This document shows, piece after piece, positions 12,177 to 12,294 of a stretch of DNA of 64,000 bases; position 1 is the stretch's first letter; each line of letters opens with the position of its first letter. The DNA is from Escherichia coli (lineage in GTDB: Bacteria; Pseudomonadota; Gammaproteobacteria; Enterobacterales; Enterobacteriaceae): assembly GCF_003991155.1 (NCBI RefSeq), contig NZ_CP031293.1; one strand, 5' to 3'. The notes under the pieces are model-generated. The model was not told the origin of the DNA, ran no database searches, and saw nothing but the letters and a program-made list of their open reading frames with translations. A program made the position numbers and the translations under genes.

Positions 12177-12294
12177 AAATCGCGGAAGGGATGAAACAAC
12201 AGCGCCTGACGGCGCTGTGTCTGGCATGCCTGCAATCCGGGAAACCGGACCAGGAAAAAACTTGCAGGCCATAACAGTATCTACACGTTGAAAC

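Follow-up and report, generated by a model that had tools for sequence, protein, structure and literature searches.

Circle formation has been stated for the IS110 family (PMC11208160), and a promoter formed at the joined ends of the circle, Pjunc, was described by Pares-Guillen et al. 2025 as a general mechanism of IS110/IS1111 elements, in which the -35 is provided by the right end and the -10 by the left (PMC12288879). In reporter fusions the junction promoter of ISPpu10 was strong and its native promoter weak, no hybrid promoter was found for ISPpu9, and weak native promoters were proposed as the supply for integrated IS110/IS1111 copies (PMC12288879). A 2026 preprint sets out an explicit on/off switch, in which the resident copy lies quiescent, shielded by a REP-derived insulator, and Pjunc is assembled in the circle, and reports that the 5' stem-loop of IS621 lowers downstream expression (bioRxiv 10.64898/2026.03.19.712850). 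For IS621 itself, a reconstituted sigma70 promoter was described by Durrant et al. 2024, in whose donor-screen oligonucleotides both TTGCAG and TATTAT were left unvaried as "the natural promoter" (PMC11208160). For IS621 and five orthologues, small RNA sequencing from plasmids carrying the joined right end (RE) and left end (LE) yielded an RNA of ~177 nt that begins at the predicted endogenous sigma70-like promoter (PMC11208160).

Here, we analysed a window of 64,000 nucleotides from an Escherichia coli chromosome (segment order araBAD-polB-rapA-rluA-[IS621 insertion]-djlA-lptD-surA), in which an intact IS621, an IS110-family element with a bridge-RNA recombinase, occupies positions 11004-12280 in REP sequence between rluA and djlA. 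With high confidence, we identify the feature under study as this element's circle-junction (Pjunc) sigma70 promoter. The split promoter is real and conserved; it is already published for IS621 itself (Durrant et al., Nature 2024; PMC11208160), and the present finding is a correct independent rediscovery of that feature. The modest addition made here is that conservation of the split arrangement within the clade extends to relatives with 45% protein identity, that most relatives are so compact that the -35 holds the recombinase stop codon, that the right-end hairpin is a lineage-specific addition that looks like an antisense-facing terminator, and that the off state of IS621 depends, by sequence score, on the flank.

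The recombinase gene (11196-12176, plus strand) encodes 326 amino acids that match the NCBIfam model NF033542 "IS110 family RNA-guided transposase" with 254.8 bits (cut-off 140) and contain the Pfam domains PF01548 (1.7e-24) and PF02371 (2.2e-25). Identical DNA is labelled "IS110-like element IS621 family transposase" in RefSeq. Across 1281 nt, 27 differences separate the window copy from canonical IS621 (97.9% identity), and the two proteins differ in two amino acids (L251M and M279A, written as window residue, position, canonical residue). The left end (11004-11195, plus strand, 192 nt) encodes the bridge RNA and has five differences from the published IS621 LE, and the right end (12177-12280, plus strand, 104 nt) has two differences from the published RE; LE and RE of the canonical copy are those of Supplementary Table 1 of PMC11208160. 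The window copy resembles the published RE-LE in its promoter hexamers and spacer, which are identical to those of canonical IS621, in the combined length of RE, CT and LE (298 bp, the size published for IS621 RE-LE in PMC11208160), and in the expected 5' end of the RNA. It is unlike published IS621 in carrying T for A at 11018, the expected +1, in four changes in the target-binding-loop region (within 11077-11102, a 1-nt insertion among them), and in the A-run before the RE hairpin (12193-12197), the interruption of which leaves a weaker antisense U-tract.

The ends of the element are fixed at 11004 and 12280, with a CT core at both junctions (11002-11003 and 12281-12282, plus strand), by comparison with the uninterrupted site in strain MS1679, which holds a single CT (...TTATCAGGC-CT-ACACGTT...; in longer form ...CGTCTTATCAGGC-CT-ACACGTTGAAAC...). 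Empty and filled sites together reveal a scarless insertion at a specific REP site, at which the junctions share the core dinucleotide only and terminal inverted repeats are absent. The target, ...ATCAGGC-CT, lies in a REP pair (BIME; 10923-11002, plus strand; Rfam naRNA4, 77.3 bits), which, in the integrated state, places GC-rich DNA before the -10. On the other side, djlA converges on the right end of IS621, its stop codon being 13 nt away.

All coordinates given for the promoter by the sequence-only reading agree with the window sequence. The -35 hexamer TTGCAG (12262-12267, plus strand) lies 13 nt from the core at the right end and matches the consensus at 3/6 positions, and the -10 hexamer TATTAT (11006-11011, plus strand) matches at 5/6 (8/12 in total) and lies inside the right-donor segment. 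When the ends are joined through CT, the spacer is 13 + 2 + 2 = 17 bp, and it contains the left-donor segment ACAGTAT (12274-12280, plus strand), which recurs at 11141-11147 within the donor-binding loop and does not vary in relatives. With an approximate sigma70 matrix, the scores of which are rough, the joined site reached 9.8 bits and was the top site in RE-CT-LE. Thirty-five sites score at least as high in 128 kb (both strands of the 64-kb window), and the chance that such a site spans a given junction is ~0.5-1%; chance is removed as an explanation by the retention of the arrangement in relatives. The description of the promoter as strong found no support in the sequence, as the -35 with its three matches is weaker than the TTGACn of most relatives. 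An extended -10 was rejected, given that TG abuts TATTAT directly, not one base away, and is thus out of register. A separate, weak promoter-like site, CTCCCA-18-TATCAT (7.3 bits), is present at 11121-11150 within the donor-binding-loop region, and its TATCAT belongs to the left-donor guide; a role of this site as a source of basal recombinase mRNA, made without the complete bridge RNA, is pure speculation.

The sequence-only reading had expected the transcription start near 11018. This position, seven bases past the -10, corresponds to base 1 of the published, J23119-driven bridge RNA, which begins AGTGCAG (PMC11208160). With T at 11018 in this copy instead of the A of canonical IS621, initiation may move to G11019. 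The bridge RNA (11018-11195, plus strand) opens with a 5' stem-loop (11021-11048, plus strand), followed by the target- and donor-binding loops. The left end folds far better than shuffled sequences (z = -3.9), and comparison with nine close relatives showed compensatory changes at 12 pairs, with both the 5' stem-loop and the stem of the target loop affected; the covariation-supported 5' stem-loop begins 3 nt past the expected start. Across relatives, the left-target guide follows each element's own left flank, and in the window copy ACAGTATC at 11141-11148 repeats the right-end terminus. At the IS621 locus, Rfam 15 yielded no hit to a bridge RNA; the REP-derived naRNA4 was the one family matched there. 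Elsewhere in the window, the sok antitoxin RNA of a hok/sok locus, the ES003 sRNA and tpke11 were hit at gathering score (coordinates listed for these hits: 61423-61575, 42262-42314, 62960-63037). We also considered that a read-through transcript could fold back, with CCTTGTAT at the left end pairing with the guide/ribosome-site region 11179-11190. This pairing was seen with a short 5' extension, but with the whole REP it retained only 0.16 of 16 summed pair probability, and the idea was dropped.

Relatives were collected by a scan of one genome per species, which gave 78 loci at 33-83% protein identity. Their ends were determined by comparing copies within genomes and then anchored on conserved termini, leaving a comparison set of 40 distinct elements with anchorable ends (45-83% protein identity). 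The block ATAACAGTAT-CT-TGTATT is common to all 40. TTG stands 13 nt before the core in 39/40, as TTGACn in 28 and as TTGCAG in four, and the -10 reads TATTAT in 27 and TATTGT in 10 of the 40 (37 together). Information content is low at four spacer positions beside the -35 and close to zero right after the -10. In 27/40 relatives the TGA stop codon of the recombinase lies inside TTGAC(n), and the RE of these elements is only 15 nt long; in Enterobacter-type relatives the reading frame continues to the TAA of ATAACAG. The stop codon is found ~100 nt further upstream in four lineages, E. coli, P. vulneris, Superficieibacter and Phytobacter, and all four keep a non-coding TTGCAG at the 13-nt offset while nearby bases have diverged.

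The integrated left junction of the window copy presents GGGCCG at the -35 position, 17 bp from the -10, and scores 5.3 bits as compared to 9.8 bits for the junction. A promoter scan of 10800-12500 reported no promoter-like site under a rule of at least 4/6 matches per hexamer, which the junction site, with a -35 of 3/6, would itself fail. Other IS621 copies have different flanks. In the prpB-prpC REP cluster, a CTGACG from the flank stands 17 bp before TATTAT in two copies; this site is reported by the promoter scan (9/12) and scores 10.8 bits versus 9.8 bits for the junction, and the copy between ygfZ and trhA has CTGGCG (8.8 bits). In E. coli SCZE5, the prpB-prpC pair is arranged head to tail, ~90 bp apart, in neighbouring REPs (L005, 1500-1900). 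As a matter of sequence score alone, the junction exceeds the integrated end in the window copy and in 38/41 elements, with a mean gap of 5.9 bits, and it does not do so in the prpB-prpC copies.

Part of the conservation of the hexamers has other causes, as the stop codon lies in the -35 in 27/40 relatives and the bridge RNA reads a donor segment with which the -10 overlaps. One could thus argue that both hexamers are kept for reasons unrelated to transcription, TTGAC as last codon plus stop and TGTATTAT as donor segment, the -10 being embedded in the conserved donor block ATAACAGTAT-CT-TGTATTAT. We consider this highly improbable. TTGCAG has kept its 13-nt offset in the four lineages in which it no longer codes, published RNA-seq puts the 5' end of the RNA at the junction promoter (PMC11208160), and a 22-bp donor without the -35 recombines when bridge RNA is supplied in trans (PMC11208160), which makes the -35 hexamer dispensable for recombination, although that experiment was not a clean -35 deletion, as the bridge RNA gene was removed too. 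A different objection accepts the promoter and denies the switch: integrated IS621 copies might be transcribed about as well as circles, by read-through from the upstream gene (rluA here) or from -35-like hexamers in the REP loop, which would leave the junction promoter with little to contribute. Excision does depend on the integrated copy for its recombinase and bridge RNA, so that expression only from the circle or a tandem junction, as the sequence-only reading had it, cannot be absolute, and this wording is further weakened by those IS621 copies that gain a -35-like CTGACG from their REP flank, in the prpB-prpC case with 9/12 matches against 8/12 for the junction. The scan placed no terminator-like site on the plus strand between rluA and the left end, and ISPpu9 is a documented IS110 element without a hybrid promoter (PMC12288879). 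The GGGCCG flank of the window copy, however, is 4.4 bits under the junction, the junction is favoured in 38 of the 41 elements, and the ISPpu10 reporters established a weak native promoter and a strong junction promoter together with a REP-derived insulator (PMC12288879; 10.64898/2026.03.19.712850), and we regard the absence of any real switch as improbable. In the literature we found no published reporter comparison of the IS621 junction with the integrated IS621 left junction. With the -35 weakened, the off state of IS621 may vary with the resident REP, and some resident copies could be partly "on" via a flank-derived -35.

In the window copy, the stop codon is separated from the -35 by an insert of ~92 nt (12159-12250, plus strand) specific to the IS621 lineage, which provides a new C-terminus, the stop codon and two hairpins and is absent from the Enterobacter, Pseudenterobacter, Buttiauxella, Methylomonas and Dokdonella relatives. 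The insert opens with AATCCGG, and the same heptamer recurs 75 nt on (12159 and 12234). The inverted repeat CAGCGCC-TGAC-GGCGCTG of the earlier reading exists, but at 12200-12217, 7 nt to the left of the 12207-12224 assigned to it; with its flanking pair it forms the hairpin ACAGCGCC-TGAC-GGCGCTGT (12199-12218). The hairpin might end the recombinase mRNA, as a terminator or as a signal for 3' processing, as the sequence-only reading suggested: it has a stable, GC-rich stem of 8 bp located 23 nt past the stop codon, and the stem is invariant in five sequences, with a loop that differs in Phytobacter and a diverged stretch between stop and stem. We nevertheless think this role unlikely. An intrinsic (Rho-independent) terminator would combine the GC-rich stem with a U-tract on the plus strand, and here the plus-strand tail, GUGUCUGG, has none and the terminator scan did not call the hairpin. 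On the minus strand the arrangement is terminator-like and was called, with the tails TTGTTTCAT here and TTTTTTTCA in canonical IS621 (given for the terminator test as TGTTTCATCC here and TTTTTTCATC in canonical IS621). Most relatives, moreover, have an RE of 15 nt without the hairpin, and no stem pair varies, so that an RNA structure and a palindromic DNA site cannot be told apart. Our preferred interpretation, at low confidence, is that the hairpin acts as an inward-facing terminator and protects the recombinase gene against antisense read-in from convergent neighbours such as djlA.

An additional inverted repeat of 8 bp surrounds the second hairpin of the insert. Its left arm, GCCTGCAA (12228-12235), lies inside the insert, and its 3' arm, TTGCAGGC (12262-12269), includes the -35 and sits just beyond the insert; both arms of this repeat (12228-12269) are kept in P. 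vulneris and Superficieibacter. Between the arms are the hairpin TCCGG-GAAA-CCGGA (12236-12249) and, just upstream of the -35, an A6 tract (12255-12260), which could have a role like that of a proximal UP element. The right end as a whole folds with z = -4.3 on the plus strand and -3.6 on the minus strand. The ~92-nt insert might modulate the junction promoter. Two readings, that the insert at 12159-12250 is a functional module and that the IS621 off state varies by REP, are put forward jointly as possible, if doubtful.

Naturally joined ends were sought in sequence collections. BLAST against 5,426 complete E. coli genomes detected no contiguous RE-CT-LE junction; four full-coverage hits were rejected, as they consist of two copies ~90-200 bp apart in neighbouring REPs. 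Absence of genomic junctions is expected for a transient circle and gives no direct support either. Exact scans of metagenome and viral contigs for the clade-wide junction 18-mer ATAACAGTATCTTGTATT matched at least 133 loci, and among those listed neither a recombinase homologue nor TTGAC at the right offset was present. Most of the listed loci represent one repeat from a few metagenomes (L090-L204) that is unrelated to IS621 and has no recombinase homologue nearby; it carries ATAACAGTATCTTGTATT in the context TAGCTTCATGCTCACCGTTATTTTTAATAA...TATTGTGTGTGATTGACGATTA, often at contig ends or in inverted pairs.

The genome comparisons also brought up two unusual IS621 loci. In the rsmS-mscK intergenic region of E. 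coli O26:H11 str. 11368 (L004, 1790-1815), an IS621 copy that many O26 genomes have in common shows a donor-like left junction, ...CGCTTA-ACAGTAT-CT-TGTATT. The target TCAGGC is replaced there by the element's own right-end terminus ACAGTAT, and the left end is immediately preceded by 11 nt made up of right end and core, without a -35; in another strain the empty site is CGCTTATCAGGCCTAC (L218, 395-425). This junction could be the remnant of a tandem copy or the product of aberrant strand exchange. Downstream of znuB in E. coli E41-1 (L084, 1500-1610), an unannotated IS621 left-end fragment of ~70 nt spans the -10 and the 5' stem-loop up to the left-target guide and has CCTTATCCGACCT on both sides, followed immediately by the right half of the REP. 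The fragment looks like a solo IS621 remnant, and 557 records with only an 80-90% match may be remnants of the same kind.

These observations combine in the following model for the junction promoter. In the integrated state, the -10 TATTAT, 3 nt inside the left end, faces REP DNA, and the -35 TTGCAG, 13 nt inside the right end, faces nothing useful. Excision of the circle by the recombinase would join the ends via the shared CT core and bring the hexamers to a distance of 17 bp, and transcription would then begin ~7 nt past the -10, around 11018-11019. The predicted product is the bridge RNA, and the recombinase mRNA is probably part of the same transcript. Both components would be boosted exactly when the donor circle exists, the size of this contrast being, for IS621, one that we infer, and integration would split the promoter again. 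The sequence-only reading had arrived at the same split and assembled promoter driving the left-end RNA and the recombinase, which stands and equals the published model, while its claims of strength, of activity only from the circle and of a hairpin terminator found no support. Tying the output of guide RNA and recombinase to the excised circle would limit transposition, which matters for applications in which IS621 serves as a programmable recombinase.

Among the described systems, ISPpu10 of Pseudomonas putida is like IS621 in belonging to the IS110 family, in targeting REPs and in placing the -35 in the right end and the -10 in the left end, and the literature presents its junction promoter as a switch turned on in the circle only (PMC12288879; 10.64898/2026.03.19.712850). 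It differs in that its junction and native promoters were compared by reporter fusions, and in having a bridge RNA without the 5' stem-loop of IS621 (10.64898/2026.03.19.712850). ISPpu9 is likewise an IS110 element with a REP target that forms circles, yet it has no hybrid promoter and relies on a native promoter for expression (PMC12288879); owing to this exception, the split promoter is not a defining character of the whole family. Hybrid promoters that form where the two ends meet, in a circle or a tandem dimer, and that raise transposase expression are described for the IS3, IS21 and IS30 families and for IS492, an IS110 element (PMC12288879; PMC11208160 ref. 12). The ends of classical DDE elements are inverted repeats, whereas in IS621 the promoter spacer itself includes the core of the donor together with a segment recognised by the guide, and the promoter's first product is a guide RNA.
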